Shown: one piece after another, positions 23,251 to 50,945 of the stretch
Layout: each line of letters begins with the position of its first letter
Position numbering within the stretch: the first letter of the stretch is position 1
Source: an uncultured virus (IMG/VR IMGVR_UViG_3300032287_001571)
Lineage: Duplodnaviria > Heunggongvirae > Uroviricota > Caudoviricetes
Virus record (IMG/VR): IMGVR_UViG_3300032287_001571
Reading direction: 5' to 3' (one strand)
Length of the DNA stretch: 64,000 bases
Translations under genes and position numbers: made by a program
Notes under the pieces: generated by a model
The model's database searches: none
What the model saw: the letters and a program-made list of their open reading frames with translations, nothing else
What the model was told of the DNA's origin: nothing

Positions 23251-23288
23251 AAAAGCCCCCCGCTGAGTAGCAGGGGGGCTCTCCTCTT
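23251..23288. terminator. bidirectional intrinsic terminator between convergent units
   Basis: AAAAGCCCCCC-GCTGAGTAGCA-GGGGGGCT-CTCCTCTT hairpin. Confidence 0.75.
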
Positions 23289-23314: not shown

Positions 23315-23704
23315 CTAGTCAACATCGTCGGGTAGTTGGCGGTTGTTCCTGATGTCCTCCTTGGACATGAAGAAGTCAATGCCACCCCAGACTCCGTGCC
23401 CTATCTTGTTGTTCTTGGCGAAGCGGAAGCACTCCTTGCGCACCTCACAGCCCGCACAGATGGCCTGAGCCTTCCCGATGATGCTCTCCCTCAGCCGTCC
23501 TCCCTTGCGGGGGAGGTTGGTCATGTCGGGAACCTCACCGAAGAAATACTGAGTCCACTCCGTGTGTCCCGTGCAGGCGCCCCTGTCCCTCCATGTCCCC
23601 TTGTCTTGGACGAGGAGTCGGGGCAGGTCAATGGTGTTCCATCTGGACGGCTCCTCGGTGAAGGCGGAGAAGATGTTCCCCTCCGCCTCCACCTCGGTGC
23701 TCAA
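23315..23704 (-). CDS. whiB: WhiB-family transcription factor (second copy)
   Basis: WRDRGAC...FF...ICAGCEVRKEC...GVWGG; TTG start overlapping the upstream stop. Confidence 0.85.
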   Translation of the reverse strand: MSTEVEAEGNIFSAFTEEPSRWNTIDLPRLLVQDKGTWRDRGACTGHTEWTQYFFGEVPDMTNLPRKGGRLRESIIGKAQAICAGCEVRKECFRFAKNNKIGHGVWGGIDFFMSKEDIRNNRQLPDDVD

Positions 23705-24726
23705 GCCAGCACCGCCTTCATGGCGGTCAGGACGAGGTCGTCCTGCTCCTTGGTCTTGCCCATGACGCCGTTCAGCATGTTGCGCTCCACACGGTTGGTG
23801 TCCTTGCCTGCGTAGTGATGCTGGAAGGTGTTCCACGCCTGATAGACGCCCAGTGCGGTGCCCGACCACGGGGACACACGGGAGTCGTTCTTGTAGATGT
23901 GGCGCAGGAGTTCCTGCTTGTTCTCCACACGGGCCTTGACCTGCGGACGGACATCCATGCTCAGGTCAACGGGAACGAGGCGCTCCACGATGGACTGGAA
24001 CTGCTGGTCGGTCACTGCCTGCGACGACAGGCGCTCCAGTTCGGCGGTGAGACTGTCGCTGTACTCGTGCACCAGAGTCAGGGCATCACGGACGGTCTGC
24101 AACTTGCCGATGCTGTTCTTGCTGTGACGCACCTTGTGCTGGGGGGTCTGCTCCCCGAGCGCTCCAGCCAGCGTGTTGTCGCAGACGACGATGGTGCTCA
24201 CCAACTGGTAGGTGGTGGACAGCGTGCCGTCGTGCGAGGTGCAGGCCAGCAGGTGCGGGCGGATGTCAAAGCCCATCGGGGTCTTGACCGTCTCGGGCAG
24301 TTCAATGGTCACGAACGCCTTGCCTCCGTTGCGCAGGAGCCCTGCGGTGCCGATGGCGAGGTCGCTGTCGTCCACGAGGTTGGACACCTGCTTGAGGAGC
24401 CACTCCTCGTACTGGTGGACGGTGTACGAGGACTTGAAGACCCCGAAGACCGTGCTCGGGTCGTCACCACGGACGATGGCCTTGCGTGAGGTGTCAACGG
24501 ACTCCCGACCGTCGGCGGTGCGCACCACCAGTTCTGCCTCCAGTGCCTTCCAGTAGAAGAGGTCGCTGATGACATCAGCCACGGGGATGGCGTGGGGGTA
24601 GTGGTTGGGCTTCTCCGTGTTCTGGAGGTCTGCACGGTAGTGCCACGCCATTCCCCGTCCGTAGATGGGGTCGGTGTAGCCGACCTTGGTGTTCTGGTTG
24701 AGCCACAGAAGTGTTTCTGCTGACAT
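23701..24726 (-). CDS. DUF932 family protein
   Basis: AWH, YTVHQ, TAGLLRNG, TSHDGT, VVCDNTL, VRHSKN, GTALGVYQA. Confidence 0.85.
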   Translation of the reverse strand: MSAETLLWLNQNTKVGYTDPIYGRGMAWHYRADLQNTEKPNHYPHAIPVADVISDLFYWKALEAELVVRTADGRESVDTSRKAIVRGDDPSTVFGVFKSSYTVHQYEEWLLKQVSNLVDDSDLAIGTAGLLRNGGKAFVTIELPETVKTPMGFDIRPHLLACTSHDGTLSTTYQLVSTIVVCDNTLAGALGEQTPQHKVRHSKNSIGKLQTVRDALTLVHEYSDSLTAELERLSSQAVTDQQFQSIVERLVPVDLSMDVRPQVKARVENKQELLRHIYKNDSRVSPWSGTALGVYQAWNTFQHHYAGKDTNRVERNMLNGVMGKTKEQDDLVLTAMKAVLA

Positions 24727-24815
24727 TGTTGTCTCCTTTGTTGTTTTGGTTTTGGGGATGTGGTGCGATGTCCCTCACGAAGTAATCTACCAGTGAGGGA
24801 ACACCGCCACAACTT

Positions 24816-25148
24816 TTACTTGATGGTTTCTCGGATTTCCAGCCAGAGGCACGCCATGTCCATGGCCTCCTCGGACTCGGGGTATGCCTTGCGTGCGGAG
24901 TCTCCGAAGAGAGCCAGCACCGCCATGGAGGCGTCGTCGTAGAACATGTACTTGTTCGCACCGCCCACGCCGTCGTTCTCCACGGAGAAGGAGGCACCGC
25001 TCGGGGTGGAGACATCTGCGCTCCACCCGATACCGCCCTCGGTCTCCCACTCATCCACGATGGTGAGCGTGAAGGGGACGAGCACCTCGGCGTCCGTGGG
25101 GATGAGCCACGACGACATGACCTCCGCCAGTTTCTGTGTGTCTGTCAT
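24816..25148 (-). CDS. hypothetical protein
   Basis: SD and ORF. Confidence 0.65.
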   Translation of the reverse strand: MTDTQKLAEVMSSWLIPTDAEVLVPFTLTIVDEWETEGGIGWSADVSTPSGASFSVENDGVGGANKYMFYDDASMAVLALFGDSARKAYPESEEAMDMACLWLEIRETIK

Positions 25149-25310
25149 TTCTTGTTCCTTTTCTGTGGTTGGTATCTGGTGTCTGCGATGTACACCGTCC
25201 CGAACGCTGGGATGACGCTCATGGACAGCGCCAGTGGGTACTGGTGCAGGAAGTAGATGATGGATGCGGTGATGAGTGCCCCGAGAACGAGCACCACACA
25301 CACGCCACGC

Positions 25311-25604
25311 TCATTCAGGGTCATGGTAGTTGTCCTCGTCGTATTCGCCCACGAAGTCAAACAGGTGGAACTCGTCCACGATGATGATGGCCTTGGACTG
25401 GTTCTCTCCTCGGTATGTGACTCCCTCGGGGAGGTTGACCAACTCGTGGTCATCACCCACCGTCACCATGTTGATGGCTTCCACCGCCACGGGCACCATG
25501 ATGCTCGGTACGGGTGGGTAGCAGTTGAATGAGAAGTGCCACGAGACCTTCTCCTCAAGGCTGAGGTTGGACTCGGCGATGCCGAGTGCTGTTATGCGAC
25601 CCAT
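25311..25604 (-). CDS. hypothetical protein
   Basis: WHFSFNCYPPVP; SD. Confidence 0.7.
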   Translation of the reverse strand: MGRITALGIAESNLSLEEKVSWHFSFNCYPPVPSIMVPVAVEAINMVTVGDDHELVNLPEGVTYRGENQSKAIIIVDEFHLFDFVGEYDEDNYHDPE

Positions 25605-25605
25605 G

Positions 25606-25800
25606 TCAGTTTTCCTCCTGTTGTTCGTATGGGCTGATGTAGAAGTCGTAGAGGTTGTACTCTCCGACTGTTTCCTTGTACTCGTCGGGGTCGGTCAAGG
25701 AGTACTGCTCGCACTCCTCAAAGGTTCCGACGAATGCTGGGGTCTCGGAGTCTGGCAGGCACCCAGCGGATGCCCACCAGACGGAGAACTGTTCGTTCAT
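25606..25800 (-). CDS. hypothetical protein
   Basis: AGCLPDSE; coupled ORF. Confidence 0.6.
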   Translation of the reverse strand: MNEQFSVWWASAGCLPDSETPAFVGTFEECEQYSLTDPDEYKETVGEYNLYDFYISPYEQQEEN

Positions 25801-26039
25801 CAGAAAAGCACCGTCCCCTCGGGGAGGATGCCCAACTTGATGAGCGTGTCCACGGTTGCCGACAGGCTCTCCACCGCTTCGTCCTTGGTGTAGGAGTCCA
25901 CGGGGATGACGAGTGACAGCCCGTGTCGCTCCAGCACATTGGGCGTGTCGCACACGGTGCACACTCCCTCTTCGGTGAAGGCGTCGTAGGTGCTCCCGCA
26001 CTCACGGCACCACAGTGGTATCTGGTTGATGTTGCTCAT
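25800..26039 (-). CDS. small zinc-ribbon protein
   Basis: CREC...CTVC. Confidence 0.65.
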   Translation of the reverse strand: MSNINQIPLWCRECGSTYDAFTEEGVCTVCDTPNVLERHGLSLVIPVDSYTKDEAVESLSATVDTLIKLGILPEGTVLF

Positions 26040-26257
26040 TGGATGTTCTCCTTCTTGTTGAGTTTGTTGAGCAGTCTCTGTGCCCTGTCCGCCTGCACTG
26101 CGCAGTAGGACGATGACTCGGGGTCACCGTAGGTGTGGTTGACACGGGAGAACCCGCTCATCCACGACTGGTACAGCACGAGGGCGCTGATGATGGTCTC
26201 GGTGTACTCCTCGGCGTCGTCATCGGACAGCGCCTTGAGTGCTTGGGTTGTGTTCAT
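26036..26257 (-). CDS. hypothetical protein
   Basis: SD and ORF. Confidence 0.6.
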   Translation of the reverse strand: MNTTQALKALSDDDAEEYTETIISALVLYQSWMSGFSRVNHTYGDPESSSYCAVQADRAQRLLNKLNKKENIQ

Positions 26258-26268
26258 GTTCTTTCCTT

Positions 26269-26832
26269 TCAGGAGAGTGAGTGCTGGAGGTCGTCCTCTG
26301 CCTCGCCGAGCCAGTCACGGAAGGTGTCCACCGCATCGGCAGGGATGAGAACCGTGATGGCGGTGGAGAAGACATTGGATGTCGGGTCACAGACGAAGGC
26401 CACCTGACACGGGGGGAACTTGTCCCCGCTGATGATGTCCTCCATCCAGTCGTTGAAGACGGACTTGCGCTCGCCGACGGAGTCGCCCCATGCGCCAGTC
26501 GTCCAGCCGTTGAGTGCGTCCACCCAGCCCTCAATGGTCGTCGTGTAGTAGCCACGCCAGCCATCGGTTGAGGTGTAGGTGCGGGACAGTTTGAACCCCA
26601 TGGGCTCGTCGCCGTACTGGTTGAACACGAAGTTGTCAGCCACATAGAACTTCTGTGGCTCTCCGTCCCCGACCACGACGGTGACCGTGGATGCGTCCGA
26701 GGTGTCGGACTCGTAGCAACCCCAGCAGAACCACTCCTCGGCGATGGGCGACCATTGGCAGTCGTCCACTTCGGGGTTGATGGTCTCCTTGCAGTTGCCA
26801 CACTCGTGGGTCTCTGGTGCGTCAATGTTCAT
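26269..26832 (-). CDS. zinc-finger-containing hypothetical protein
   Basis: CGNC...CWGC; TDGWRGYY. Confidence 0.7.
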   Translation of the reverse strand: MNIDAPETHECGNCKETINPEVDDCQWSPIAEEWFCWGCYESDTSDASTVTVVVGDGEPQKFYVADNFVFNQYGDEPMGFKLSRTYTSTDGWRGYYTTTIEGWVDALNGWTTGAWGDSVGERKSVFNDWMEDIISGDKFPPCQVAFVCDPTSNVFSTAITVLIPADAVDTFRDWLGEAEDDLQHSLS

Positions 26833-27131
26833 CAGTTGTTCTCCTTGTTTGCGGTGGCGTACTGCCACGGGTGAATGCCGAGTTTGGCGATGGGTTGGTC
26901 GGTCTGAACCATGAAGTCCAGCCCGATGTTCTGTCCGTGTCTGGCGACGAACCACTGGTCTGGCGTCAGTTCCCAGTAGGCGTAGTCGCCGAGCCAGTCG
27001 TACTCTGGTGTGTCCAGAACCTTGCCCAGTGCGTACCTGTCATCGGGGTTCTCACCCACGATGAAGATGGCCTGCATGGTCTGGTCTACACCAGTGTGCT
27101 TGATGGTCGCTGTGTATGCGCTTGTGCTCAT
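26832..27131 (-). CDS. hypothetical protein
   Basis: SD and ORF. Confidence 0.6.
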   Translation of the reverse strand: MSTSAYTATIKHTGVDQTMQAIFIVGENPDDRYALGKVLDTPEYDWLGDYAYWELTPDQWFVARHGQNIGLDFMVQTDQPIAKLGIHPWQYATANKENN

Positions 27132-27382
27132 TGTGCTTTCCTCCTCCGCACTCGGCGGTCTATGACTTTGGTTCCAGAGCGGGTGTCAAGGTTCCCGTCG
27201 TACAGGTACGCCCAGACACTGAGCCTGCCATCCTCCACGAAGAGGTTGACATCAATGTCCTTGCTGAACCCGTACCACCAGTCCACCGAAGCGGTCTTGC
27301 TGGTGTCACCGATGGTCTCGTACAGGTCAACGAGAGCCGAGCAGAACTTCTTGAGTTCGGCAGTCACTATCAACTGTTCCAT
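27128..27382 (-). CDS. hypothetical protein
   Basis: coupled ORF. Confidence 0.6.
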   Translation of the reverse strand: MEQLIVTAELKKFCSALVDLYETIGDTSKTASVDWWYGFSKDIDVNLFVEDGRLSVWAYLYDGNLDTRSGTKVIDRRVRRRKAQ

Positions 27383-27537
27383 CACTCCCACTCCTCGTAA
27401 CCGTCAAACCAGTCGTCGCCACGGGTGTCCTCACGACGGCAGTGTGCTTGTGCTTCGTCCAGTGTGAGACCAGTCAGGATGACCTTGCTGGCCCTGTCCC
27501 AGTCCTTGTAGAAGCGGATGACTTTGTAGGTGCTCAT
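27382..27537 (-). CDS. small hypothetical protein (not in ORF track)
   Basis: AAGGAG SD; MSTYKVIRFY...TGLTLDEAQAHC...WFDGYEEWE. Confidence 0.65.
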   Translation of the reverse strand: MSTYKVIRFYKDWDRASKVILTGLTLDEAQAHCRREDTRGDDWFDGYEEWE

Positions 27538-27549
27538 CAGTTGTTCTCC

Positions 27550-27789
27550 TTAGATGAGGTCGCCGTAGTCCACGGCGAGTTCGGTGATGTTTGTGTCTTC
27601 GGGGTCTCGGTCAAAGAGGCTCCACTCGTCCTCCTCGTCGTCCTCCACTGGTTGGATGTCCTTGTGCCCAGCGCCCTTTGACCATGCGAGGTCAATGGCG
27701 TCGTGCACGAAGTCCCACGCCTCCTCCTCGGACTCGGCGTCCACAGTGACGGTGACTTCCCATGTGATGTTGAATGCGTACTGGCTCAT
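27550..27789 (-). CDS. acidic hypothetical protein
   Basis: VTVDAESEEEA. Confidence 0.65.
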   Translation of the reverse strand: MSQYAFNITWEVTVTVDAESEEEAWDFVHDAIDLAWSKGAGHKDIQPVEDDEEDEWSLFDRDPEDTNITELAVDYGDLI

Positions 27790-27791
27790 GG

Positions 27792-28028
27792 TTACTTCGC
27801 TTCCCTGACGGACGGAACCAACTGCACCAGTTTGCCGATGATGGCGTCTGCCTCGTCGGGTTCGGAGAAGTTGATGAACAGTTGGAACTCCGCCTCGGTC
27901 TCGTTGATGGCGTCGTCCGACTCCGACTTGCACTTGATGTCAAAGACGATGAAGTCGTCAAAGCGACGGAGGTTCAGTTTGATGGTGCTCGTGTCCACAT
28001 CGTGGACGCTGGTTGACACTAGTGCCAT
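27792..28028 (-). CDS. hypothetical protein
   Basis: AAGGAG SD immediately 3' of hammerhead HH-A. Confidence 0.65.
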   Translation of the reverse strand: MALVSTSVHDVDTSTIKLNLRRFDDFIVFDIKCKSESDDAINETEAEFQLFINFSEPDEADAIIGKLVQLVPSVREAK

Positions 28029-28046
28029 GGTTGTTCTCCTTTGTTG

Positions 28047-28106
28047 TGACCTGCCTCTTCAGGCCGTGGGCGGTCATCCCACGACTACCCCCGAAGGGGT
28101 TTCGGC
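28047..28106 (-). ncRNA. type II hammerhead ribozyme HH-A
   Basis: minus strand: GCC GAAAC CCC UUCG GGG GUA| GUCGUGGG AUGACCG CCCACGGC CUGAAGA GGC A GGUCA; complete core, loop I UGACC pairs with 3' tail GGUCA; cleavage between 28086 and 28085. Confidence 0.9.
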
Positions 28107-28271
28107 TCAGTTGTACTTGTTGGAGATGTGGAGGGCGACGAAGATGCGCTCGTGGTCGGCGCAGTCCTCCACCTCACGCCAGTCCTCGGCGCTCCACTGG
28201 TCGGTGACGAGGAGCACGCACTCGTTGCTCCCGTAGTTGCCATCGCTGGCGAAGTAGGAAAGTGTGGTCAT
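28107..28271 (-). CDS. small hypothetical protein (not in ORF track)
   Basis: MTTLSYFASDGNYG...; stop codon abuts HH-A. Confidence 0.65.
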   Translation of the reverse strand: MTTLSYFASDGNYGSNECVLLVTDQWSAEDWREVEDCADHERIFVALHISNKYN

Positions 28272-28283
28272 GGTTGGTTCCTT

Positions 28284-28646
28284 TCAGGAGTTCTTCAGGT
28301 AGGGCTTGCTGGGCTTGATGGTCTTGGCGACTGCGACCTCGTCGCTGTTGATGCGACCGACGAGGAGTTCGGCGTCAAGGCGAGCCTTGTCCACCTTCTC
28401 CACGATGATGCGCTTCCACTGTGCAGGGGTCAGCAGTTCCTTGAGCACCTCGTCGTTCCACGAGGTGGTGCTGGCGCTCACGAGCGTGAGGTTGCCGAGG
28501 CTGGTCTCCACCTTGGTGGTGTCCGAGGACTGGAGGCGCTTGATGAGCACCTCGTCGTGCTCCTTGAGACGCTCGGTCAGTGCGTCCAGTTCCTGCTTGA
28601 GGAGGATGCGCTCCTCGGCGAGTGTGTTGATGGTCTTGGTTGCCAT
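28284..28646 (-). CDS. hypothetical coiled-coil protein
   Basis: A/C-rich leader and AAGGAG SD. Confidence 0.7.
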   Translation of the reverse strand: MATKTINTLAEERILLKQELDALTERLKEHDEVLIKRLQSSDTTKVETSLGNLTLVSASTTSWNDEVLKELLTPAQWKRIIVEKVDKARLDAELLVGRINSDEVAVAKTIKPSKPYLKNS

Positions 28647-28702
28647 TGTTGGTTTCTCCTTTGGTTGGGTTTGGGTTGATGTTGTCAGATGGGTGTGTCG
28701 TG

Positions 28703-28915
28703 TCACCAGACCTGTGCGTCTTCTATCTGCGCATGGTCAAGTTCCACGGTGATGTCCTCGGCGGGGTGGTTGAAGTCGTCGGCGCTGGTGACCACGACAT
28801 TGAGCATCGCCTCCTCGGCGAAGTTCTGGATGGCCTCGTCGTCCCAGTCGTCGGGGACATTGGCCTGAATGGTCACCGACAGGTTGATGCTCTGTGTGAA
28901 TCTGATGGTCTTCAT
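28703..28915 (-). CDS. hypothetical protein
   Basis: AAGGAGAACAACCAATG start. Confidence 0.65.
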   Translation of the reverse strand: MKTIRFTQSINLSVTIQANVPDDWDDEAIQNFAEEAMLNVVVTSADDFNHPAEDITVELDHAQIEDAQVW

Positions 28916-28935
28916 TGGTTGTTCTCCTTGTGTGT

Positions 28936-29035
28936 GTGGTTGCTGGGCTTGCGCCCTGACGACACCGAGATGCCTGCTCGCACCTCGGTGCCCTCAGAGC
29001 GCCACCGCCGTAGCGGTGACGCCCCCGAGCACCAC
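28936..29035 (-). ncRNA. structured intergenic element, copy A (predicted 4-way junction)
   Basis: 27-nt core identical to 30670-30696; cUACGg and GCAA tetraloop hairpins. Confidence 0.65.
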
Positions 29036-29044
29036 CTCGGTTGG

Positions 29045-30586
29045 TCACCCCACCCAGTCGCTGAGCAGGGAGGACAGGAACGACGCATCCTCAGCGCCGA
29101 GGTCTTCACCGAAGCCGTCCAGAACGGCGGTGAGGTTCTCCTCCTTGGCGTTGAGAAGACCGAACATGCGGTCATCCAGCGTCATCTCCCCGTTCGCACG
29201 GGCACCAGTGAGGTGCCACGCCGTGACGGGGCGGTCTTGGGAGATGCGGTGGCACCTGTCCTCCGCCTGCTTCAGTTCGGCAGGCGTGAACGGGAGTTCC
29301 ACCGACATCCACTGGTTGGCACGGGTCAGCGTGAGACCGACGCCAGCGGACTGGTAGTTGCCGACGAAGATGTTGGCACTGCCTGACTGGAAGTCGTCCA
29401 CCGCCTTCTGCTTGGCATCGTCGCTCATGCCACCGACGACGGACACCACGCTCCAGCGGGGGTCAGTCTTGGCACGCTTGGCGCACTCGTCCACGATGGC
29501 ACCGATGACCGAGCGGTGGTGAGCGAACACCACGACTGGCTCGTCGGACTCCACGAGGGACTGGATGTGCTCCAAGGCGAAGTCAACCTTGGCCTTGCCG
29601 AGCGCCTGACGCATGGCGGTCAACTGGGTGATGGTCTCGGCACGGGATGCCTTGAGCACCGCCTCACGACCTCCACGGTCAAAGACCCAAGCGAGGAAGT
29701 CACGCTCAATGCGCAGGTACTCACGCAACTGGGAGTCGGTGAGCACCACGGGCAACTGGGCACGGCGCTTCGCAGGGAGTTCGGTGAGCACATCGTCCTT
29801 ACGGCGACGGACATAGCAGGTGCCACGCAACTTCTCGTGCAGTTCCGCACTGTTGGTGGAGCCGTTGAATGTCCAGCCGAAGTCGTTCTTGATGGGGTCG
29901 CAGTACCGCCACTTGAACGCACCAGCGCTCTTGAACACGGGCTGGAGCGAGCCGACGATGTCCAGCAGGCTGACCAGTTCCACGGGTCGGTTGACCGCAG
30001 GAGTGCCCGATGCCAGCACGACATAGCCGTCGTCACGCACGCCACGGGCGAGCCCGAGCAGTGCCTTGGTGCGCTTCGCCTTCTCGGTCTTGAAGCGGTG
30101 CGCCTCGTCCACGAGGATGGCACCGAACTTCACGCTCTCCAGCACGGGAGCCCACGGTGTGAGCACGGCATCGCCGATGATGACGACATCGGTGTCGGGC
30201 ACGCCGTTGGGCTTGGTGCCCTCCACGACATCGTGGGTCAGGTGCGGTGCGAACTGGGTCAGTGCACGGCGCCACATCTCACGCAGTGACGGCGGGCAGA
30301 CGACGAGCACCTTGTGACCCTCGGACTGTGCACGGACGGCGACGGCGATGAGTTGCGGGGTCTTGCCGAGACCCATCTCGTCACCGAGGATGACACGGCG
30401 CTGACGCAGGCAGTACGCCACGCCCGCACGCTGGTACGGGAGCAGGGGAAGTGCGAGGTCAAAGTCAAGGTCGGCATCGTGCGCCGACGAGAGCGAGGTG
30501 AGTTCAGGACAGATGTCGGATGAGTCCTTGGCGACACGGCTGGCGCCGTCCAAGAACTTCACGAGGTCGTCAAGAGCAGTTGACAT
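29045..30586 (-). CDS. SNF2/HARP-like helicase (second)
   Basis: GDEMGLGKT, VDEAH, SGTPAVNRP, GVGLTLT, QAEDRCHRI. Confidence 0.92.
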   Translation of the reverse strand: MSTALDDLVKFLDGASRVAKDSSDICPELTSLSSAHDADLDFDLALPLLPYQRAGVAYCLRQRRVILGDEMGLGKTPQLIAVAVRAQSEGHKVLVVCPPSLREMWRRALTQFAPHLTHDVVEGTKPNGVPDTDVVIIGDAVLTPWAPVLESVKFGAILVDEAHRFKTEKAKRTKALLGLARGVRDDGYVVLASGTPAVNRPVELVSLLDIVGSLQPVFKSAGAFKWRYCDPIKNDFGWTFNGSTNSAELHEKLRGTCYVRRRKDDVLTELPAKRRAQLPVVLTDSQLREYLRIERDFLAWVFDRGGREAVLKASRAETITQLTAMRQALGKAKVDFALEHIQSLVESDEPVVVFAHHRSVIGAIVDECAKRAKTDPRWSVVSVVGGMSDDAKQKAVDDFQSGSANIFVGNYQSAGVGLTLTRANQWMSVELPFTPAELKQAEDRCHRISQDRPVTAWHLTGARANGEMTLDDRMFGLLNAKEENLTAVLDGFGEDLGAEDASFLSSLLSDWVG

Positions 30587-30611
30587 GGTTGTTCTCCTTT
30601 TGTGTGGTTGC

Positions 30612-30703
30612 GGTGGGCAATGCTATCGCCCTCAGGGGGCACCAACACACTTTGTGCTGATGCCCCCTGAGAGCGCCACCGCCGTAGCGGTGACGCTCCC
30701 ACC
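30612..30703 (-). ncRNA. structured intergenic element, copy B (predicted 4-way junction)
   Basis: same core hairpin; second and third arms differ in sequence but still pair. Confidence 0.65.
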
Positions 30704-31378
30704 TCATGCTTTGCTGGCGCACTCGGGGCCGAGACCGAGCGCACGGGATGTCTCGTCGGTCAGGTGCCGACCGCACGCTCCGCACACTCCCAGTTCCCGA
30801 CCGTAGAGAGCCTGCGCCTCACGAGCCTGCTGGGGGGTCAGGGAGGCGAGACGCTCGGCGTGAGCCTTGGTCTCGGCGTGGGTCATGGTCTGGTCTGCAT
30901 GACCGCCGATGGTGCGGAGCAACTGCTTGGCACCGCCCTTGATGCGGACGATGAAGAAGTCAAGGTCGTTCGTGCCCTTGAGGTTCGGCAGTGCGTAGCG
31001 CCCGCACTCCACGGATGCCAGCCCCTGCGCCTCGTTGAAGCACTCGCCCTGCTTGTGGAAGTTCTCCCACTGGCGGTGGGCGACGGCGACGGCGAAGCCA
31101 GTGCCGACCTCCACCTTGCCACCGCACAGAGCACAGAATCCCTCACGCTTGTTGATGATGCTGTGCCCCTCGGGCAGGTGCGCACGCTCGGTGTCCACGG
31201 GCTTGGAGACCGCCTTGACCTTGTCAATGAATGCCGAGGCATCCCTGATGGTCAGGCTGTCAATGCCCTTGTCTCGGATGAATGCGTCAACATCGGTGAT
31301 GCCGAGCACCTCCTTGCGCTCCTCCAGCAGTTTGCGGAGGAACGACTGTTGCTTGGGTGTGATGGTTGATGTGGTCAT
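30704..31378 (-). CDS. DUF6011-like zinc-ribbon protein
   Basis: CGACGRHLTDETSRALGLGPECA; N-terminal TPKQQSFL. Confidence 0.75.
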   Translation of the reverse strand: MTTSTITPKQQSFLRKLLEERKEVLGITDVDAFIRDKGIDSLTIRDASAFIDKVKAVSKPVDTERAHLPEGHSIINKREGFCALCGGKVEVGTGFAVAVAHRQWENFHKQGECFNEAQGLASVECGRYALPNLKGTNDLDFFIVRIKGGAKQLLRTIGGHADQTMTHAETKAHAERLASLTPQQAREAQALYGRELGVCGACGRHLTDETSRALGLGPECASKA

Positions 31379-31584
31379 TGGTTGTTCTCCTTGTTCAGTG
31401 CATCGGGGCTGATGCAGTAGTCCTTGCCGAGGGTGCCGTGGCTGACGACGACACCGCCGACCTTGTCGCACTTGTCGCTGAATCGGCGCTCGTTCACTAT
31501 CACGACGGTGGCTACCGCCAGTGAGATGCCGATGATGATGCCGACCACCACCGAGGTGAGGTCTCGCTTGTCCTGCTGGTTCAT
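31375..31584 (-). CDS. small membrane protein
   Basis: TM helix followed by C...GG...C. Confidence 0.65.
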   Translation of the reverse strand: MNQQDKRDLTSVVVGIIIGISLAVATVVIVNERRFSDKCDKVGGVVVSHGTLGKDYCISPDALNKENNQ

Positions 31585-31600
31585 GGTTGCTCCTTTGATG

Positions 31601-31666
31601 TCTGATGACTCGTCAGCACGGGCACTCACCCGTGTACGCCCGAAGGCGTTTCGTCATGTCAGAGTG
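31601..31666 (-). ncRNA. type II hammerhead ribozyme HH-B
   Basis: minus strand: CACUC..AUGAC GAAAC GCC UUCG GGC GUA| CACGGG UGAGUG CCCGUG CUGACGA GUCAU CAGA; cleavage between 31635 and 31634. Confidence 0.9.
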
Positions 31667-31908
31667 GCTCGGTCATGCTCGCTCATGCAGACGAGGCACC
31701 ACACACTCACAGCGTCCTCGTTCAGCGCCCAGAACGGGGCGAAGGTCTTCTTGCTGTGCTCGTGCCTCACGCCGACCTGCTCCTTGCAGGAGTCGCACTC
31801 CCATGTCCACACGGCCCACTGCGGGTCGGCGACACCCTTGTTCCACTTGCGGACGAGAGCCTCGTCCACGATGAACGGCGAGAAGAATGGCTGGTAGTAG
31901 GTGGTCAT
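31654..31908 (-). CDS. small zinc-finger protein
   Basis: CDSC...CLVC; stop codon lies inside HH-B stem II. Confidence 0.6.
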   Translation of the reverse strand: MTTYYQPFFSPFIVDEALVRKWNKGVADPQWAVWTWECDSCKEQVGVRHEHSKKTFAPFWALNEDAVSVWCLVCMSEHDRATLT

Positions 31909-32072
31909 TGGATGTCCTCCGTCTTGATGGGGTTGAAGTGGTCGGTGTCCAGCAGTGCGTCGTGTGCGCACTGTGCGCACAGGTCAAAGGTGTAGAAGCC
32001 CTCGGGTCGGTACGACGAGGGCAGGTAGAGGCGCTTCCCCGCAGGGGAGTCGCAGGTCTGGCAGGTGGTCAT
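31905..32072 (-). CDS. small zinc-finger protein (not in ORF track)
   Basis: MTTCQTC...LCAQC; SD. Confidence 0.55.
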   Translation of the reverse strand: MTTCQTCDSPAGKRLYLPSSYRPEGFYTFDLCAQCAHDALLDTDHFNPIKTEDIQ

Positions 32073-32084
32073 GTTGGTTCCTTT

Positions 32085-32546
32085 CTATGACCATGCCGTC
32101 GGCAGGTCACATCGGTTGTACAGGGTGTGTAGAAGCGCTCCGTGCTCCACGGAGATGAAGCGACGAGCGAGACCGACGAATGTCGTGCGCCACTCGTCGT
32201 GGTGCCCCTCACCCGTCATGCAGATGAGGTGCGCCAGTTCGTGGCACAGGGTCAGCAGGTCAATGCTCGGGGTGGACACGACGATGGCGTGGTGCTCGTG
32301 TGAGGCGCAGGCAAGGAACCCACGCCCCACACGCTTGACGATGACCTCGGGAGCAACGAGGTCAAGGTCGGCACACACGCCGTCAATGAAAGTCTGCGCA
32401 TCGTCTGCGGTCACGACCCTGCTCGGCAGGGCGGACTTGACCACGGACTCCACGGCGTACACGAGGCGCTGGTGCTCGGGCATGGCGGAGCGGAACCGCT
32501 TCGCCACACCCTGCACCTCGGTGAGGTACTCGCTCACATGGCTCAT
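32085..32546 (-). CDS. HExxH zinc metallopeptidase (TIGR04338/Rv0185-like)
   Basis: QRLVYAVE...LCHELAH...GHHDEW. Confidence 0.75.
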   Translation of the reverse strand: MSHVSEYLTEVQGVAKRFRSAMPEHQRLVYAVESVVKSALPSRVVTADDAQTFIDGVCADLDLVAPEVIVKRVGRGFLACASHEHHAIVVSTPSIDLLTLCHELAHLICMTGEGHHDEWRTTFVGLARRFISVEHGALLHTLYNRCDLPTAWS

Positions 32547-33241
32547 CGTCCGAGCGCTCCGATGGCACCACGACCAACGCCACCCGACGAGAACGACGAG
32601 CCCGCCGAACGACCAGCGCTGTAGCCAGACGACGAGCGTGCGTACCAGCGGGACGACGTGGAGCGCAGTCCGTGCACCTGTGCACGCATCTCGTTCTCGG
32701 CACGCTTGAGCCTGTCCACGAGCACGAGCGACGACCCGCCCTCGGAGACGACCTGCTGGACGACATCACGGTTCGCCTTGCGGAGCGCCGATGCGACACC
32801 AGACTGGAAGCCCATCCACCACGAGTTGCGGAACGAGCGGTCACCCTTCGGGATGGTGCGCACGGCGAGCATCTCCACCGCCGACCAGAGGGTCTTGACT
32901 GCGAAGATGTCAGCCTTGGTGCCGTACAGGTGGAGCACGAAGCCGTCACGCTTGTGCTCGTCCCAACGCTTGGACTGGTACGCATCGCATGAGTTGAGGC
33001 GGGCGATGGTGTACGCCACCTGACGACGACGGACAGCCCACGCACCGCTGATGACGAGCGTGTCGGACACGATGTCCTCGGACTCAGCCGACGGCTCAAG
33101 CGCCGACTCGTCAAGGTTGTGCTTCGTGATGAGGCGGTGCGCCATGGCGAGCGCCGTCTCTGCTTCAGCCTGCGGTGTGTTCGGGTGGTTGGCACGGGCG
33201 AGAATCGCCTGCACTTTCTCAATGATGTTCTGGTCGGTCAT
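32543..33241 (-). CDS. DUF2786 family protein
   Basis: IIEKVQAILARANHPNTPQAEAETALAMAHRLITKHNL; FRNSWWMGF; GYSAG. Confidence 0.85.
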   Translation of the reverse strand: MTDQNIIEKVQAILARANHPNTPQAEAETALAMAHRLITKHNLDESALEPSAESEDIVSDTLVISGAWAVRRRQVAYTIARLNSCDAYQSKRWDEHKRDGFVLHLYGTKADIFAVKTLWSAVEMLAVRTIPKGDRSFRNSWWMGFQSGVASALRKANRDVVQQVVSEGGSSLVLVDRLKRAENEMRAQVHGLRSTSSRWYARSSSGYSAGRSAGSSFSSGGVGRGAIGALGR

Positions 33242-33287
33242 GTTGGTCTCCTTGTTGGTGGTGCTGGTTGTTGATGGTGATGGTCGG

Positions 33288-33521
33288 TCAGCGCTCGTTG
33301 ACGGTGCCACAGACGAGGCAGGTCACTTCGCCCTCGTGGTCAACCTCGTGGGGGTACTCGCCCTCGCAGGGCTTGCACTCGTCCCACACGACGTTCGGCA
33401 GGTCGTCACGGAGCGCCCACAATGCGTTGTGGACACCCTGTGCGCCGAACGCTTGGTACAGCATGTAGGCGAGGTCGTGGAGGGTGACTTCGTCACCGTG
33501 GTGGTCTGTGATGTTCTTCAT
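33288..33521 (-). CDS. small zinc-finger protein
   Basis: CKPC...CLVC. Confidence 0.65.
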   Translation of the reverse strand: MKNITDHHGDEVTLHDLAYMLYQAFGAQGVHNALWALRDDLPNVVWDECKPCEGEYPHEVDHEGEVTCLVCGTVNER

Positions 33522-33562
33522 GTGTGTTCTCCTTGGTTGTGTTGGTCGGTGGTCGGTTCTGG

Positions 33563-33892
33563 TCAGTCCCAGTACGAGGTGACGGGCTCAGAGATGGTGG
33601 CGAGACTGTAGCCCCACTCGTCCAGCAGGCTCACATGACCACGCCATGCGTCAGCATCATGGAATCTGCTTCGGATGTTGACGGCAGTCATGGTCTCGGC
33701 CTGTCGGATGGCATCGGACAGCGACTCGGCACGGAACGAGAAGTACCGCACCTTGTCGGTCGTGTAAGCGACGATGGTGTAGACGCTCGTGGGCTGTTCG
33801 GCGCACTTGGCGCAGACTCGGTCATCGCCGATGTAGATGCCCGCACCATCGGGGACTTCGGTGGGGCATCGGTCGCAGGTGTATTCGGTCAT
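33563..33892 (-). CDS. zinc-finger hypothetical protein
   Basis: CDRC...CAKC. Confidence 0.65.
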   Translation of the reverse strand: MTEYTCDRCPTEVPDGAGIYIGDDRVCAKCAEQPTSVYTIVAYTTDKVRYFSFRAESLSDAIRQAETMTAVNIRSRFHDADAWRGHVSLLDEWGYSLATISEPVTSYWD

Positions 33893-33914
33893 GTTGTTCT
33901 CCTTGGTTGTGTTG

Positions 33915-33984
33915 CTGACGACCCATCGTCAGGTGACACCCTGAGTGTCACGACCCCCGTGAGGGGGTTTCGGGTCTCGGTCAG
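33915..33984 (-). ncRNA. type II hammerhead ribozyme HH-C (extra U after the core)
   Basis: minus strand: CUGAC CGA GACCC GAAAC CCCC UCAC GGGG GUC| GUGACAC UCAGG GUGUCAC CUGACGA U GGGUC GUCAG; cleavage between 33952 and 33951. Confidence 0.85.
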
Positions 33985-34862
33985 TATCCCCTGATGACCT
34001 TGCGGACGAAGTACTCCACGGCGTGACCGAGGAGGTCTCGCACGGCGGAGTCGGAGTACAGGCTCCGCACCGTCTGCCCCACGGCGATGCCGATGGCTTC
34101 GTCCACGCCGATGACTCGGTTGACCTGAGCCTCGTCGCCACGCCACAGGTTCAGCGTGCCGTGGGTCTCCAGAGTGGTCGTGCCGACCACGGCGAGGAAC
34201 CTCTCGGCGATGTCCTTGACGAGCACCTGAACGGCGTGGTCTCGGTAGTTCTGTGCGAGGCTGTTGCCGAAGTGGCGCTCGGTGTCCACCTCGTCGGTGA
34301 ACTTGTTGACGAACTCCTGCACCAGTCCCACCGCCCACTTCTCACGGTCATTCAGGGGCTGTGCGTCCTTGAGGTAGGCGATGGTCTGGAGACGAGCCTC
34401 AGCCTTCTGCGCCCGCTCACGCCACTCGTCAATGGCGTTGTTGATGAACGCCACGGGGTTGAGGATGAAGTTCACCCGCCACTTGTCGTTGGTGGTGAAC
34501 TGCACCACCGTGACATCGTCGCCGTCACGGGTCACGGTGTACCCGCTGATGAACGACCACGACTCGTTGGCGATGTCGTACACGCCCTCGGTCAGCACCG
34601 AGAACCCCTCGTCCTTGCCGTGGTAGTCCTTCGGCTGAACCCTGTGCAGGTAGGACTTGACGAGGTCAAACAGGAAGTTCTGCTGGAGGATGAAGTGGAT
34701 GGCTCCCTCGTCGCTCCACGAGGTGGAGTCACCGACGGTGGCGGTGTAGTCGTCCTGCGCATCGGCGATGAGGGCGAGAGCCCGCTTGCCACGGTTGGTG
34801 CGCTTGTTGATGGTTCGGTTCTCGTTCTGCTTGAACGAGATGTCCTTGGTTGCTGTGCTCAT
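33981..34862 (-). CDS. hypothetical protein
   Basis: long ORF with (CAAC)n leader and SD. Confidence 0.75.
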   Translation of the reverse strand: MSTATKDISFKQNENRTINKRTNRGKRALALIADAQDDYTATVGDSTSWSDEGAIHFILQQNFLFDLVKSYLHRVQPKDYHGKDEGFSVLTEGVYDIANESWSFISGYTVTRDGDDVTVVQFTTNDKWRVNFILNPVAFINNAIDEWRERAQKAEARLQTIAYLKDAQPLNDREKWAVGLVQEFVNKFTDEVDTERHFGNSLAQNYRDHAVQVLVKDIAERFLAVVGTTTLETHGTLNLWRGDEAQVNRVIGVDEAIGIAVGQTVRSLYSDSAVRDLLGHAVEYFVRKVIRGY

Positions 34863-34915
34863 TGGTTGTTCTCCTTGGTTGTGTTGGTTGTTGGTTGTTG
34901 GTTGTTGGTTGGTCA

Positions 34916-35299
34916 TCACCACGGCTGGCGAGCGCCTCCGTACAGCAGGCGGTCAGCCTGCGCCTCGGCTTCGCTCACCTCGGCATCTTCGTTCGCTCGC
35001 TTCACAGCCCGCTCGTACTGCTCCAATGCGTCCTCGTAGTCGTCGGCGTGGTAGATGTCCGAGTCCTTGCCGTCCACGACGATGTGCTCCACCACGAACA
35101 TGACACGGCTCCATGTGCCGTTCTCCCGCTGGTAGTGGTAGCCCTTCTCACGGACGATGAGTTCCACGCAGTAGGAGTCTGCGTCGTGACGGTTGAGAAC
35201 CCTCTCGTCACCCGAGTAGGTGCCCGTGGGTTCCAGTTCAATGTCGTGTTCCTTCTCCCACTCCGACAGTTCGTGGTAGTCGTGGAATCGTGGTGCCAT
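34916..35299 (-). CDS. hypothetical protein
   Basis: SD immediately 3' of HH-D. Confidence 0.65.
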   Translation of the reverse strand: MAPRFHDYHELSEWEKEHDIELEPTGTYSGDERVLNRHDADSYCVELIVREKGYHYQRENGTWSRVMFVVEHIVVDGKDSDIYHADDYEDALEQYERAVKRANEDAEVSEAEAQADRLLYGGARQPW

Positions 35300-35319
35300 G
35301 TGGTTGCTCCTTGGTTGGT

Positions 35320-35381
35320 TGAGATGCCTCATCAGGCCGTGGTCTCTCACACCACGACTACGCCCCGCAGGGCGTTTCGGC
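35320..35381 (-). ncRNA. type II hammerhead ribozyme HH-D
   Basis: minus strand: GCC GAAAC GCCC UGCG GGGC GUA| GUCGUGGU GUGAGAG ACCACGGC CUGAUGA GGC A UCUCA; loop I UGAGA pairs with tail UCUCA; cleavage between 35359 and 35358. Confidence 0.92.
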
Positions 35382-35768
35382 TCACTTCCAGTACGAGACG
35401 ACGGGCTTCTCGCCCGCACCGACCAGCACCTTGTTGGCGCTGTTGATGGCGGTCTGGCATGCGTTCAGGGTCTTGCGCAGGTCGGCACGCCCGAAGGAGT
35501 CGTCGCTGTCGCACTCACGCAGGCACTCCTCGGCGTGCCAGAGGTAGTAGGCGACCTCCTTGGCGAACAGGCGTGCGCCCTCCACGGTCAGGTGAGCCTC
35601 GTAGGTGTGGGTGTGGTTCTTGCGACGCACGACGATGGGCGCTTCCCAGCAGGCGTTGAGCACCTGCTGTGTCTCGTCCATTTCGGCGATGGATTCGGCA
35701 TCCTCCACCCGTGCCTGCATCTCAGCAAGCACGAGGGAGGAGAACCTGACGGGATGGAATGTGGTCAT
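35382..35768 (-). CDS. hypothetical protein
   Basis: SD; stop abuts HH-D. Confidence 0.7.
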   Translation of the reverse strand: MTTFHPVRFSSLVLAEMQARVEDAESIAEMDETQQVLNACWEAPIVVRRKNHTHTYEAHLTVEGARLFAKEVAYYLWHAEECLRECDSDDSFGRADLRKTLNACQTAINSANKVLVGAGEKPVVSYWK

Positions 35769-35801
35769 GGTTGCTCCTTGGTTGTTGATGGTGAGGGTCG
35801 G

Positions 35802-36101
35802 TCAGTAGATGGCGCTGGGCTGGTCGTCCGAGATGAGCCACTTGGCGAAGGACTCGGACAACCCGCACTCCACGAGGAATGCTCGGTCTGCCTGTGCCTG
35901 TGCCAGCGTGTCTGCCTCCCAGTCCTCGGTGCTCTCGTGCGGGATGAGTGCATCCTTGACCTGAAGTGCCACCTGAGCGACCTCCAAGTAGTAGATGTTC
36001 TCGTCCATGTCGGGGTCGTCCCACCCTCCCATGTTGTGGTTCTGCACGATGTGGGCTTTCACGCCCTTGGCGATGCTCTTGCGGATGTCTTTTGCGTTCA
36101 T
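35802..36101 (-). CDS. hypothetical protein
   Basis: SD and A/C-rich leader. Confidence 0.65.
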   Translation of the reverse strand: MNAKDIRKSIAKGVKAHIVQNHNMGGWDDPDMDENIYYLEVAQVALQVKDALIPHESTEDWEADTLAQAQADRAFLVECGLSESFAKWLISDDQPSAIY

Positions 36102-36145
36102 GTGTGTGCTCCTTGGTTGGTTGGTTGGTTCTGGTCGGTGGTCGG

Positions 36146-36409
36146 TCAGAATCGGTCTGGGTAGATGGCGAGCACGCACCCGTAGTACGCCTCGCAGAAG
36201 ACGCCCTTCGGGCTCTCGGTGCTGTCCCAGCCGACAGCCCAGCAGTACGGGGCATCCCCGCCCTCCCAGCAGATGGCGGGGTGACCGCCCTCTGTCCAGT
36301 CGTAGATGAGGCTGGCATCGCTCAGGTCGTAGTGCTTGTACTTGCGCTGGAAGGCACGGAAGGTCGCTTCCGCCTGTCGCTTGGTGGCGTGCTTGGTTCG
36401 TGTGGTCAT
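36146..36409 (-). CDS. hypothetical protein
   Basis: ICWEGG..PYCWA...GVFCEAY. Confidence 0.65.
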   Translation of the reverse strand: MTTRTKHATKRQAEATFRAFQRKYKHYDLSDASLIYDWTEGGHPAICWEGGDAPYCWAVGWDSTESPKGVFCEAYYGCVLAIYPDRF

Positions 36410-36455
36410 GGGTGCTCCTGTCTGTGTGGGTGGTCGGTTGTTGATGGTGAACGGT

Positions 36456-36815
36456 TCAGGCGTAGACGACGGTGCCGAACACGAGGTTCTGCACGATGCA
36501 GTCGCCCTCGTCTGCGTCAATGTCTGCGTCGTCCACGAGGTCGTACACGGCGTAGCCGAGGTGGTCGCCCACGGCGGTGAAGATGCCGTTGACGGTCAGC
36601 AGGGTCGTGTCCGAGTACTCGCCCTCGTCGTCGGTCTCGGGGTTGCTGGACTCCAGCACGGCGAAGACCTCGTCGCCGTCGGCGGGCAGGTTGTCCCAGT
36701 CGTAGCCGTTGCGGTACGAGAGGGCTCCCCACCACGAGTACGACTCAAATGCCGAGCCGAGTACGGCGGAGACGATGTCACGCTTCTGCGTTGCGGTGAT
36801 GTTCTTGGTGCTCAT
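36456..36815 (-). CDS. hypothetical protein, first gene of the minus-strand operon
   Basis: AGGAAGGA SD; DADEGDCIVQ..VFG.VVY. Confidence 0.7.
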   Translation of the reverse strand: MSTKNITATQKRDIVSAVLGSAFESYSWWGALSYRNGYDWDNLPADGDEVFAVLESSNPETDDEGEYSDTTLLTVNGIFTAVGDHLGYAVYDLVDDADIDADEGDCIVQNLVFGTVVYA

Positions 36816-36829
36816 TGGTTGTTTCCTTC

Positions 36830-37665
36830 CTGTGAACGGGGTGTCCGTCCCCGTGATGCACCGAGCCATGGAGGATGGCTGGGGGTGACCCAGCGAGAGC
36901 CTTGAGACGGCCCGATGCATCACGGGCACGGAGTCGGGGAGGTGGTTAAGCCAGTCCCCCCGACACCGTTGCATCCACCGCCTGTTCCCCTTGCCCTAGC
37001 GAGTGCCGAGGGGGGCTGGTGGACAGCGACAGGTACCCGCACTCGTCGGGAGGAAGTGAGTCCTTCTCGGCTGTGTCGCCGAGCCTCTGTTGCGTGTGTC
37101 GTGTTGAAGCCATCGCTACCTGCGCCGTCCGTCTGGTTGAGCCCTGCCGTCTTCGCCGTTCATCGGGGGGTGCCGTGGCACCGTGTCCCGACTACCTGCC
37201 ACCCGCCCTCTCTGCGCTCCTCTGGCACCGTCCTCCGCCGTGTCCACTGCCCTCTCAGGCAGGTTTCCCGACGGCGACTGCATGCCAGCACCCCGCAGGT
37301 ACTAACGATGGCGATGGGCTGTTGGCTCGGGCTGTCAGCGGGACAGTCACGCAACATCCTGTGTCGCTCTGATTCTGAGAAGACCCCCCTCCGCCGTGGC
37401 GCTGGCCCAAGTGCTCTGGGCGTTGCCCGCACGGTGAGCCATCGGGCTCGGGCGGGGGCGTTGGGGAGGGAGGTCTTCGGATGTCAAGGGGCGCTGGATG
37501 AATGACTCGCTGGCTCAAGTGCTCTGAGCGTGCACCACGGGGGTTGGGCGTGGAACCGAGCGGGCGGGGAGGTTGCCCACGGGGGGCTCCCCTGCACGGG
37601 GGCACAGCGGTGCCCAACGCTCGGCGGTCATCTCCAGTTGTCAAGGTGCGGGGCTTGCGCCCTCA
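36830..37665 (-). ncRNA. candidate large structured ncRNA / operon leader (~850 nt)
   Basis: no credible ORF; several nested long-range helices; repeated hairpin motif. Confidence 0.6.
37634..37662 (-). promoter_or_regulatory. boxB-like GNRA hairpin followed by a boxA-like sequence
   Basis: minus strand GGGC-GCAA-GCCC then GCACCTTGACAACTG just after the predicted transcription start. Confidence 0.45.
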
Positions 37666-37670
37666 CCCCC

Positions 37671-37701
37671 ATCATGCCCACAGGGTGACCCCCCTTGTCA
37701 A
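37671..37701 (-). promoter_or_regulatory. putative sigma70-type promoter of the minus-strand operon
   Basis: TTGACA-N19-CATGAT; the -35 lies within the palindrome CCCCCTTG-T-CAAGGGGG. Confidence 0.55.
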
Positions 37702-37729
37702 GGGGGTTGTTCAAACTTTCTGGGAGGGG

Positions 37730-38545
37730 GTCTGAAAGAGGAAGCGGGCGGGCGTGCGCCCGTGCGTGCGTGCGCTCGTGCGTGTGCGCCCCCGTGTGTG
37801 CGTGGGCGTGGGCGGGCAGGGGGGCAGGCGGGAGTGCGCCCAAGCGAGAGGGGGCAGGAGCATGGGGGGGGGGAGGAAGGGAGGGCTGGGGGCTGGCTGG
37901 GCATTGGTACTGGGGGTGGCGGGGTGGTGGTTCCCCCTACCCCCCTCGTGCCCCCGTGGTGGCCCCCCCACCCATAGCCCCATCCCTAGGGTGGATACCC
38001 CTGGGGGTATGCAGAGGGCATTTATGCATGTTATGCAGTCCCGCATCCCCTTATTCCTTCGTCAAAGCCTTGTGGCACAAGGGTTTCCCGACTGCATAGT
38101 CATGCATTTGGGGGGGTCAGATTTCATTGTTACTCATTGGACTTTTGACACCTCAAACACCTCAAAAAGTCAATGAAAACGGGGCTAACTGGCGTCCCTG
38201 CATAAACATGCAGAATCGCCGTAGAGGCCCGAAAAGGGGGGTGCCTGCACTCCCATGCCAGAACGGGGGTTACTCACGGGTAAACGCATTCTGGCGCTTC
38301 CAAATGTACCCCAAATAAACCAAAGCCTTATGGCGCAAGGGTTTACCCATGGGTAGATACCCCCTGGGGTATAGTTAGGGGGGGTTGACAGGGGGGCGCC
38401 CCAGTGGTAACCCCCTCGGAAACCCTTACTGGGTATGGAGGAGGGGGAGGGGGGTGGCAACTGTACCCCCCCATGGTTAAACGGTCGGCGGGGTAAGGTA
38501 GGGGGGTAGGAGTGACCGCCCAACCACATACCCCCCTGGGTATAG
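37730..38545. other. G-rich non-coding divergent region with repeated palindromes
   Basis: G-runs, three ATACCC..GGGTAT sites, two AAAGCCTTRTGGCRCAAGGGTTT sites. Confidence 0.6.
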
Positions 38546-38989: not shown

Positions 38990-39013
38990 CCTTATTCAGG
39001 GTATGATGGTTGT

Positions 39014-39433: not shown

Positions 39434-39457
39434 CCTTATTCAGGGTAGAATGGTTAG

Positions 39458-39871: not shown

Positions 39872-39899
39872 GTAGCCCTATTCAGGGTATTATTTAATT

Positions 39900-40358: not shown

Positions 40359-40390
40359 AAGTGGCCCTATTCTGGGGTAAAATGGGTGAA

Positions 40391-48757: not shown

Positions 48758-50945
<2,188 letters not shown>

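Follow-up and report, generated by a model that had tools for sequence, protein, structure and literature searches.

The question raised by this locus is what several self-cleaving RNAs do between the genes of a single phage operon. The locus belongs to a 64,000-nucleotide (nt) stretch of DNA, which is the whole sequence analyzed here and is called the window below, from an uncultured virus of the Caudoviricetes (IMG/VR record IMGVR_UViG_3300032287_001571). An initial annotation, made from the sequence alone, described four hammerhead ribozymes in an early-type operon and proposed that they cut one long transcript into defined sub-mRNAs. Our preferred answer, held with moderate confidence, is that the hammerheads would act in cis and cut the operon transcript one-way into sub-mRNAs that are capped separately by hairpins. 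By comparison with related phages, the hammerheads also appear to be one type among several exchangeable devices at gene junctions of the phage clade. The four elements were located as follows.

35320..35381, minus strand: hammerhead 1, type II; predicted cut 35359/35358 (GUA); 5-base-pair (bp) loop I/3' tail pseudoknot; RF02276 score of 39.4 bits
33915..33984, minus strand: hammerhead 2, type II; predicted cut 33952/33951 (GUC)
31601..31666, minus strand: hammerhead 3, type II; predicted cut 31635/31634 (GUA); extended stem II
28047..28106, minus strand: hammerhead 4, type II; predicted cut 28086/28085 (GUA); compensated 5-bp pseudoknot; paralogous to hammerhead 1

All four complete type II cores were confirmed on the minus strand, i.e., the coding strand, by a descriptor scan. 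In 4/4, GAAA is followed by stem III (5-6 bp), GUH, stem I (7-8 bp), CUGANGA, and stem II (3-5 bp). No core deviated from CUGANGA, GAAA, and NUH, and loops close stems I and III while stem II is open; hammerhead 2 has one additional nucleotide ahead of stem II. The placement between a stop codon and the next AAGGAG, which had been described before, also held for each element. Every hammerhead starts at or over the stop codon of the upstream gene, and its predicted 3' product has a leader of 50-59 nt with AAGGAG. The predicted internal fragments between the cuts were computed as 1407, 2317, and 3549 nt, in agreement with the earlier estimates of about 1.4, 2.3, and 3.5 kilobases (kb). The positions at which read ends had been expected, i.e., 28085, 31634, 33951, and 35358, are right as the first nucleotides of the 3' products, and the nucleotides 5' of the cuts are one higher. 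The copies are spread across 7.3 kb and form two subfamilies. The claim that stems differ between copies while pairing is kept was correct as to the pairing, and the pseudoknot pairs are compensated, but hammerheads 1 and 4 are close paralogues whose stems I and II are almost identical.

On both strands of the window, the descriptor, whose thresholds were fixed with these four elements in view, gave four type II matches against a mean of 0.013 and a maximum of 1 in 300 dinucleotide shuffles. No type I or III hammerheads were found in the window by the strict descriptor. A relaxed core added three weak type II-like and two type I-like matches, near the shuffle level (any type: mean 0.82, maximum 6). 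The Rfam hammerhead models, which had been suggested as a check, agreed in part. The RF02276 gathering score of 37 bits was reached by hammerhead 1 (35318-35382), whereas hammerhead 4 (28045-28107, 32.4 bits, E 0.0045) and hammerhead 2 (33915-33975, 25.4 bits, E 0.31) fell below it. Other ribozyme families were not found at gathering score in the window or at E<=5 within 20000-46000. In the uncut RNA, the active fold was predicted as the minimum-energy fold in 2/4 copies and within 0.8 kcal/mol of it in the other two. By their sequence and modelled structure, the four elements are real, well formed, and very likely active ribozymes.

Similar elements were sought by a hammerhead pattern search of viral contigs. 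At least 136 stretches were obtained, and the 80 with flanks were analyzed; there is overlap among these loci, and the pattern is biased towards one stem II. Among the matches listed, 73 of the 80 flanked loci passed the hammerhead descriptor. At least 110 distinct ribozymes were collected, and a ribosome-binding site and a start codon lay within 60 nt in 83/110, with a median leader of 51 nt. The subfamily of hammerhead 3 (GAC/GUC) is that of seven hammerheads in a relative, the locus L047. A provirus (G005, locus L009:4962-10817) carries seven type II hammerheads and two pistol ribozymes in 5.9 kb before successive genes, one of which is ardA; its hammerheads share the subfamily of hammerheads 1 and 4.

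In hammerheads 1 and 4, loop I and the 3' tail form the 5-bp pseudoknot. Two of its pairs differ between these copies, both with compensation, and 2.8% and 3.7% of random 14-mers (n=3000) paired equally well with the two loops. Hammerheads 2 and 3 have an extended stem II in place of the 3' pseudoknot, and their loop matches the 5' flank over only 4-5 bp. In hammerhead 2, stem II is lengthened by an upstream CUGAC containing the upstream stop codon, and the tail has an alternative 7-bp pairing with the CUGACGA core, i.e., a lock. Pairing of the tail with the CUGANGA core in the predicted 3' product was found in hammerhead 2, weakly in hammerhead 3, and also in L047 and L009. In L047, the seven type II hammerheads lie in 2.4 kb of a homologous operon (L047:1292-3703), and all have the core-pairing tail. 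TCAG was present 4-21 nt downstream of the core in 25 of 103 distinct cores, compared with a shuffle mean of 5.7 and a maximum of 13. Covariation was observed between the free core position and its would-be partner, the base before TCAG (15,0 / 1,5; Fisher p 3e-4), in a table that leaves out 4/25 rows with other bases and whose rows are phylogenetically non-independent.

These tails could make cutting conditional in hammerheads 2 and 3, the tail pairing either with the core (off) or with the upstream CUGA, where the previous gene ends (on). Cleavage would then depend on upstream translation, because the terminating ribosome would mask CUGA and the 5' strand of stem II. The excess of TCAG, the covariation, and the start of 4/4 window ribozymes at or over a stop codon agree with such control. 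However, the tail occurs in only 2/4 window copies, that of hammerhead 3 has a C-A mismatch, the active fold is predicted to be favoured in the uncut RNA, and the upstream CUGA is visible in 1/7 copies of L047. An equally good explanation of the lock is a fold taken up after cleavage, which would keep the ends from re-ligating and provide a second 5' hairpin. Conditional cutting is considered unlikely; in the folding models, the core-pairing tail is most simply a lock formed after cleavage, which would block re-ligation and thicken the 5' cap.

The hammerheads are part of an operon on the minus strand, and its components were recognized by open reading frame (ORF) and profile scans. Sizes of the small products are given in amino acids (aa).

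37487..37701, minus strand: three TTGACA boxes at 37701, 37644, and 37487; candidate host-type promoter region by consensus match only
23315..36815, minus strand: operon of about 32 mostly small ORFs
34916..35299, minus strand: 127-aa ORF directly downstream of hammerhead 1; 59-nt leader; function not assigned by the scans
33563..33892, minus strand: 109-aa ORF downstream of hammerhead 2; 59-nt leader; function not assigned by the scans
33241-32543, minus strand: DUF2786 gene, operon member
32546-32085, minus strand: SprT-like gene (weak match), operon member
31375..31584, minus strand: 69-aa ORF containing a hydrophobic segment, next downstream from hammerhead 3; 50-nt leader
31378-30704, minus strand: DUF6011 gene, operon member
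30586-29045, minus strand: SNF2 helicase gene, operon member
28646-28284, minus strand: Gp157-like gene (weak match), operon member
27792..28028, minus strand: 78-aa ORF downstream of hammerhead 4; 57-nt leader
24727..24816, minus strand: long hairpin in the intergenic gap ahead of the DUF932 gene; L003 and L004 have a similar one at the equivalent place
24726-23701, minus strand: DUF932 gene, operon member
ends at 23315, minus strand: WhiB gene, start uncertain, operon end
23256..23277, minus strand: terminator-like hairpin and U-run after the WhiB gene, probable operon end

Another long hairpin was observed at 23525-23701 on the minus strand, between the DUF932 stop codon and the WhiB gene. 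The single early transcript of about 14 kb, which the initial annotation had assumed, is only plausible. It is suggested by the run of about 32 ORFs, the upstream TTGACA boxes, and the terminator-like hairpin after WhiB. The boxes lie 0.7-0.9 kb upstream of the operon, and a -10-like CATGAT is present only at 37701, with a spacing of 19 nt. Because DnaB, primase, PolA, RecA, and a terminase-like gene are encoded on its plus strand, the window is part of a phage genome. The host is probably actinobacterial, since two WhiB genes and a transglycosylase-like gene are present.

Hammerhead cleavage leaves 5'-OH and cyclic-phosphate ends. On the preferred explanation, cutting would take place at gene boundaries, during or soon after transcription and free of protein, on a long and probably early transcript. 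Owing to the type II topology, a hairpin would be left on both new ends. At the 3' end of the upstream piece, the stem III hairpin would be followed by a single nucleotide bearing a 2',3'-cyclic phosphate. The downstream piece would carry its 5'-OH on the stem I hairpin, with which it would begin 50-59 nt ahead of the start codon. The cut would be one-way in effect, because the products would be joined only by the 3-5 bp of stem II and would then part. The decay and translation of each sub-mRNA would be uncoupled from those of its neighbours. Terminal hairpins are present in the predicted folds of the products; when these are modelled in isolation, stem I of hammerhead 1 has its first two pairs open and hammerhead 4 refolds. 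From these features we infer subdivision of the transcript without a nuclease, as claimed before, and the available text of Perreault 2011 (PMC3088659) makes the same proposal. Unmasking of the ribosome-binding site was rejected as a general mechanism, since the predicted accessibility of AAGGAG after cleavage was up in 1/4 copies, unchanged in 2/4, and down in 1/4.

It had also been claimed that the 5'-OH ends would resist decay by RNase J. This was weakened by a study of the glmS ribozyme, the available text of which reports that RNase J1 of B. subtilis degrades the 5'-OH product (PMC3997798). Because a 5'-OH alone does not block RNase J, any protection must come from the terminal hairpins. 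The same degradation would fit cleavage that lowers or time-limits expression, i.e., cuts that admit RNase J or other decay and give a falling gradient or a short early pulse, as in glmS. The small genes without assigned function may also be needed only briefly. However, the predicted 5' end is base-paired from its first nucleotides, unlike a free 5' tail, and the devices precede strong AAGGAG sites with A/C-rich, open leaders; such a route into decay is rather unlikely here.

The chemistry of the hammerhead ends, i.e., 5'-OH and cyclic phosphate, suits the ligase RtcB, and the initial annotation had suggested that the internal fragments could be circularised by it. Stable circular mRNAs made by RtcB or by the ribozymes themselves are extremely doubtful. 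In their favour, the control genome of Corynebacterium glutamicum was found to encode RtcB, which means that the enzyme may exist in an actinobacterial host, and neighbouring stems II are compatible in L009 and L047 (3-5 bp). RtcB (PF01139) was found in 10/14 control genomes, but in 0/5 near-complete phage records, four of them from the clade, and not among the scanned window ORFs (31 and 77 proteins). Moreover, the chimeric stems II of neighbouring window ribozymes would have only 2, 1, and 1 bp, and the ends of 3/3 fragments paired with each other no better than random controls. Spliced or circular products were not detected according to the available text of Perreault 2011 (PMC3088659). Translation around an in-frame circle was rejected as well, as the fragment lengths modulo 3 are 0, 1, and 0 and each fragment has stop codons.

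Besides the hammerheads, a structured RNA with three hairpins was recognized at other junctions of the operon.

36813..36975, minus strand: variant three-hairpin RNA in the operon leader, just before the first gene; no Rfam match
30609..30699, minus strand: intergenic RNA of three hairpins on the upstream side of the SNF2 helicase gene; no match in Rfam
28934..29025, minus strand: intergenic RNA of three hairpins on the downstream side of the SNF2 helicase gene; no match in Rfam

The two intergenic elements fall inside the predicted 3.5-kb fragment, where they had been overlooked, and may divide it further. The leader variant had a fold z of -6.6 (0/200 shuffles equally stable) and a partial match of model R1 at 36847-36929 (E 0.001). 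In an alignment of 25 copies, chosen by a hairpin descriptor that favours pairing, 99% of cells were paired and 22/27 pairs varied on both sides; the covariation exceeded all 500 shuffles and all slid controls. The consensus has a 19-bp helix adjoining an 8-bp hairpin. A conserved U-G wobble was observed in two arms, the junction strands can swap partners, and up to several copies occur per related operon. An exact 24-nt pattern from the element had no match in viral contigs. For the element and for the core-pairing tail, no description was found in the literature by a search mostly aimed at other topics, and the supplements of Perreault 2011 may hold such tails.

By analogy, the three-hairpin RNA is most likely a site of host RNase III, because its 19-bp helix is near the substrate length and phage T7 offers a precedent. 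The idealised E. coli substrate is a helix of about two turns, i.e., 22 bp, in the available text of PMC3867540. A cut within the long middle helix would also leave a hairpin on each side. That the element is a functional substitute for the hammerhead, cut by a protein, has about an even chance. Guilt-by-context led to the twister and pistol ribozymes in the past. It is very unlikely that the three-hairpin RNA is a self-cleaving RNA of an undescribed class; if it were, the operon would be cut at seven sites by RNA alone.

The distribution of these devices was compared by an alignment search with SNF2, using the best 80 of 533 viral matches and six metagenome matches. The clade was defined as 42 loci with 45-95% SNF2 identity (L010-L049, L090, and L091), which are partly redundant and in many cases short. 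Hammerheads were found in 2/42 clade loci, i.e., seven in L047 and one in L038, whereas the three-hairpin model had coding-strand matches in 30/42 (13 by construction) and in 0/10 other loci. It is because of these two counts that hammerheads look like one of several swappable devices. In L038 (2102-5462 and 8139-8230), several intergenic elements of about 90 nt resemble a stripped-down tRNA, most with a UUCAAU loop, and occupy junctions of the same kind, with a short hairpin behind them; the tRNA-like label follows a loose rule (TTCAA motif and folding energy) and a reading of L038 by eye. The ribosome-binding site lies within a small hairpin in L047 and L038.

The same genes were found behind different devices. 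The DUF2786 gene is preceded by a plain spacer in the window, by the three-hairpin RNA in L049, and by the tRNA-like element in L022 and L038. The SNF2 gene is preceded by the three-hairpin RNA in the window, by the tRNA-like element in L038, and by nothing in L012. A hammerhead precedes the 69-aa gene here, and the orthologues of this gene in L010 and L011 have a 9-nt gap and no ribozyme. The close relative L091 lacks both hammerhead 4 and its downstream gene, and the two genes on either side (87% and 82% DNA identity) directly adjoin there; therefore the ribozyme and that downstream gene were gained or lost as one unit of about 317 nt. The 78-aa gene behind hammerhead 4 was rejected as a case of swapping at the same gene on account of its weak homology (30% over 54 aa, pairwise E 2e-5), and a search with the DUF2786 protein gave no related viral locus. 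The hammerhead, the three-hairpin RNA, and the tRNA-like minis would thus be exchangeable in the clade, and a device could come or go together with its downstream gene.

Such movement might also mean that the ribozymes are near-neutral passengers marking mobile gene cassettes, in which the repeated device and leader would offer homology for the shuffling of genes, and cleavage would merely be tolerated. The gain or loss of device and gene as a unit, the repeated leaders, and the mosaic gene content of the operon even among relatives with 94-95% identical SNF2 would be expected then. However, the cores are intact in 4/4 copies while stems and pseudoknots covary, which argues for selection on catalysis rather than on DNA identity, and passengers of this kind are improbable. 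The clade forms a natural control series, in which the same genes stand behind a hammerhead, a three-hairpin RNA, a tRNA-like mini, or nothing. These swaps make the idea of cutting and capping directly testable.

Several points weigh against cutting and capping by the hammerheads. The 31.6-kb copy, i.e., hammerhead 3, has no Rfam match at E<=5, and no operon promoter passed the sigma-70 consensus scan. Type II hammerheads were found in 0/4 relatives that are 99-100% complete; since these near-complete relatives have none, hammerheads are dispensable at the clade level. For glmS, the 5'-OH product is degraded faster in the available text of PMC3997798. A 2019 review (PMC6765202), in its available text, describes the purpose of bacterial hammerheads as still undefined and the benefit of cleavage as unproven. 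What role bacterial and phage hammerheads have for their hosts stays open there, and this operon does not answer it. What is shown here is sequence, structure, covariation, and distribution, whereas the cleavage of these four copies, their single transcript, its early timing, and stabilisation are inferred.

Other features of the window were recorded. Cultured phages yielded no close relative, the best SNF2 matches among them being only about 33% identical. A second SNF2-family helicase gene lies at 1523-3076 (+) in the replication block, apart from the one in the ribozyme operon (29045-30586, -). Four tRNA genes are present, at 43916-43989 (-) and 56998-57224 (+), with anticodons UGG, UUG, UAA, and UUU by eye; none is inside the operon. 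A tandem array at 38576-40762 (+) has five ORFs (133-152 aa), two of which match GNAT weakly, and a 34-nt repeat in it starts at 38987, 39431, and 39873, i.e., at spacings of 444 and 442 nt. The stretch 37700-38400, between divergent gene blocks, is non-coding and of low complexity with C- and G-runs, and is possibly a genome end or origin; short pieces of it are common to L012 and L015. A Cas4-like nuclease (below the NCBIfam cut-off), a SpoVS-family protein, and a proteasome-subunit-like protein are encoded at 8813-9739, 11321-11611, and 62339-62956 (+). A collagen-repeat protein, followed by a stretch of low guanine-plus-cytosine content (0.44 at 52-54 kb) with a glycosyltransferase, occupies 48700-54494 (+).

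Among known systems, the closest are the prophage hammerheads of Perreault 2011 (PMC3088659, RF02276). In the available text of that study, multiple hammerheads flank single genes or short gene blocks in prophages, and processing into operon- or gene-length mRNAs was proposed; three tandem arrangements cleaved in vitro and one in E. coli. The topology, the core, the loop I/3' tail pseudoknot, and the gene-flanking position are the same here, and the clustered layout is matched by four coding-strand elements, all of them placed between a stop codon and AAGGAG. The four hammerheads themselves are ordinary, and this layout has been known since 2011. Unlike in that study as available, the present phage is uncultured and probably actinobacterial, its four copies of two subfamilies in 7.3 kb are mixed with non-ribozyme devices, and the Perreault-type 3' pseudoknot is replaced in two copies by a core-pairing tail. 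The value added is the natural series of device swaps in the clade and the uncatalogued three-hairpin RNA.

The glmS ribozyme, as the available text of PMC3997798 presents it, likewise self-cleaves upstream of a coding sequence and leaves a 5'-OH, as is predicted here. It is gated by a ligand, has another fold, and destabilises its mRNA, whereas the window hammerheads have no evident ligand and their new 5' end would be a hairpin. Theta ribozymes of gut phages (10.1101/2023.06.13.544163, available text) are also small self-cleaving RNAs in phage transcripts; however, they have a hepatitis delta virus-like fold and are tied to tRNAs, whereas the hammerheads lie between protein genes in an operon without tRNA. 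In phage T7, the available text of PMC3867540 describes a polycistronic precursor of about 7000 nt that is processed at five RNase III sites. In T7 a long transcript is cut at structured intergenic sites into shorter mRNAs, as is predicted for the window. T7 relies on host RNase III, whereas the window hammerheads would need no protein and would leave a 5'-OH and a cyclic phosphate; the three-hairpin elements may therefore be a closer analogue of the T7 sites than the hammerheads are.

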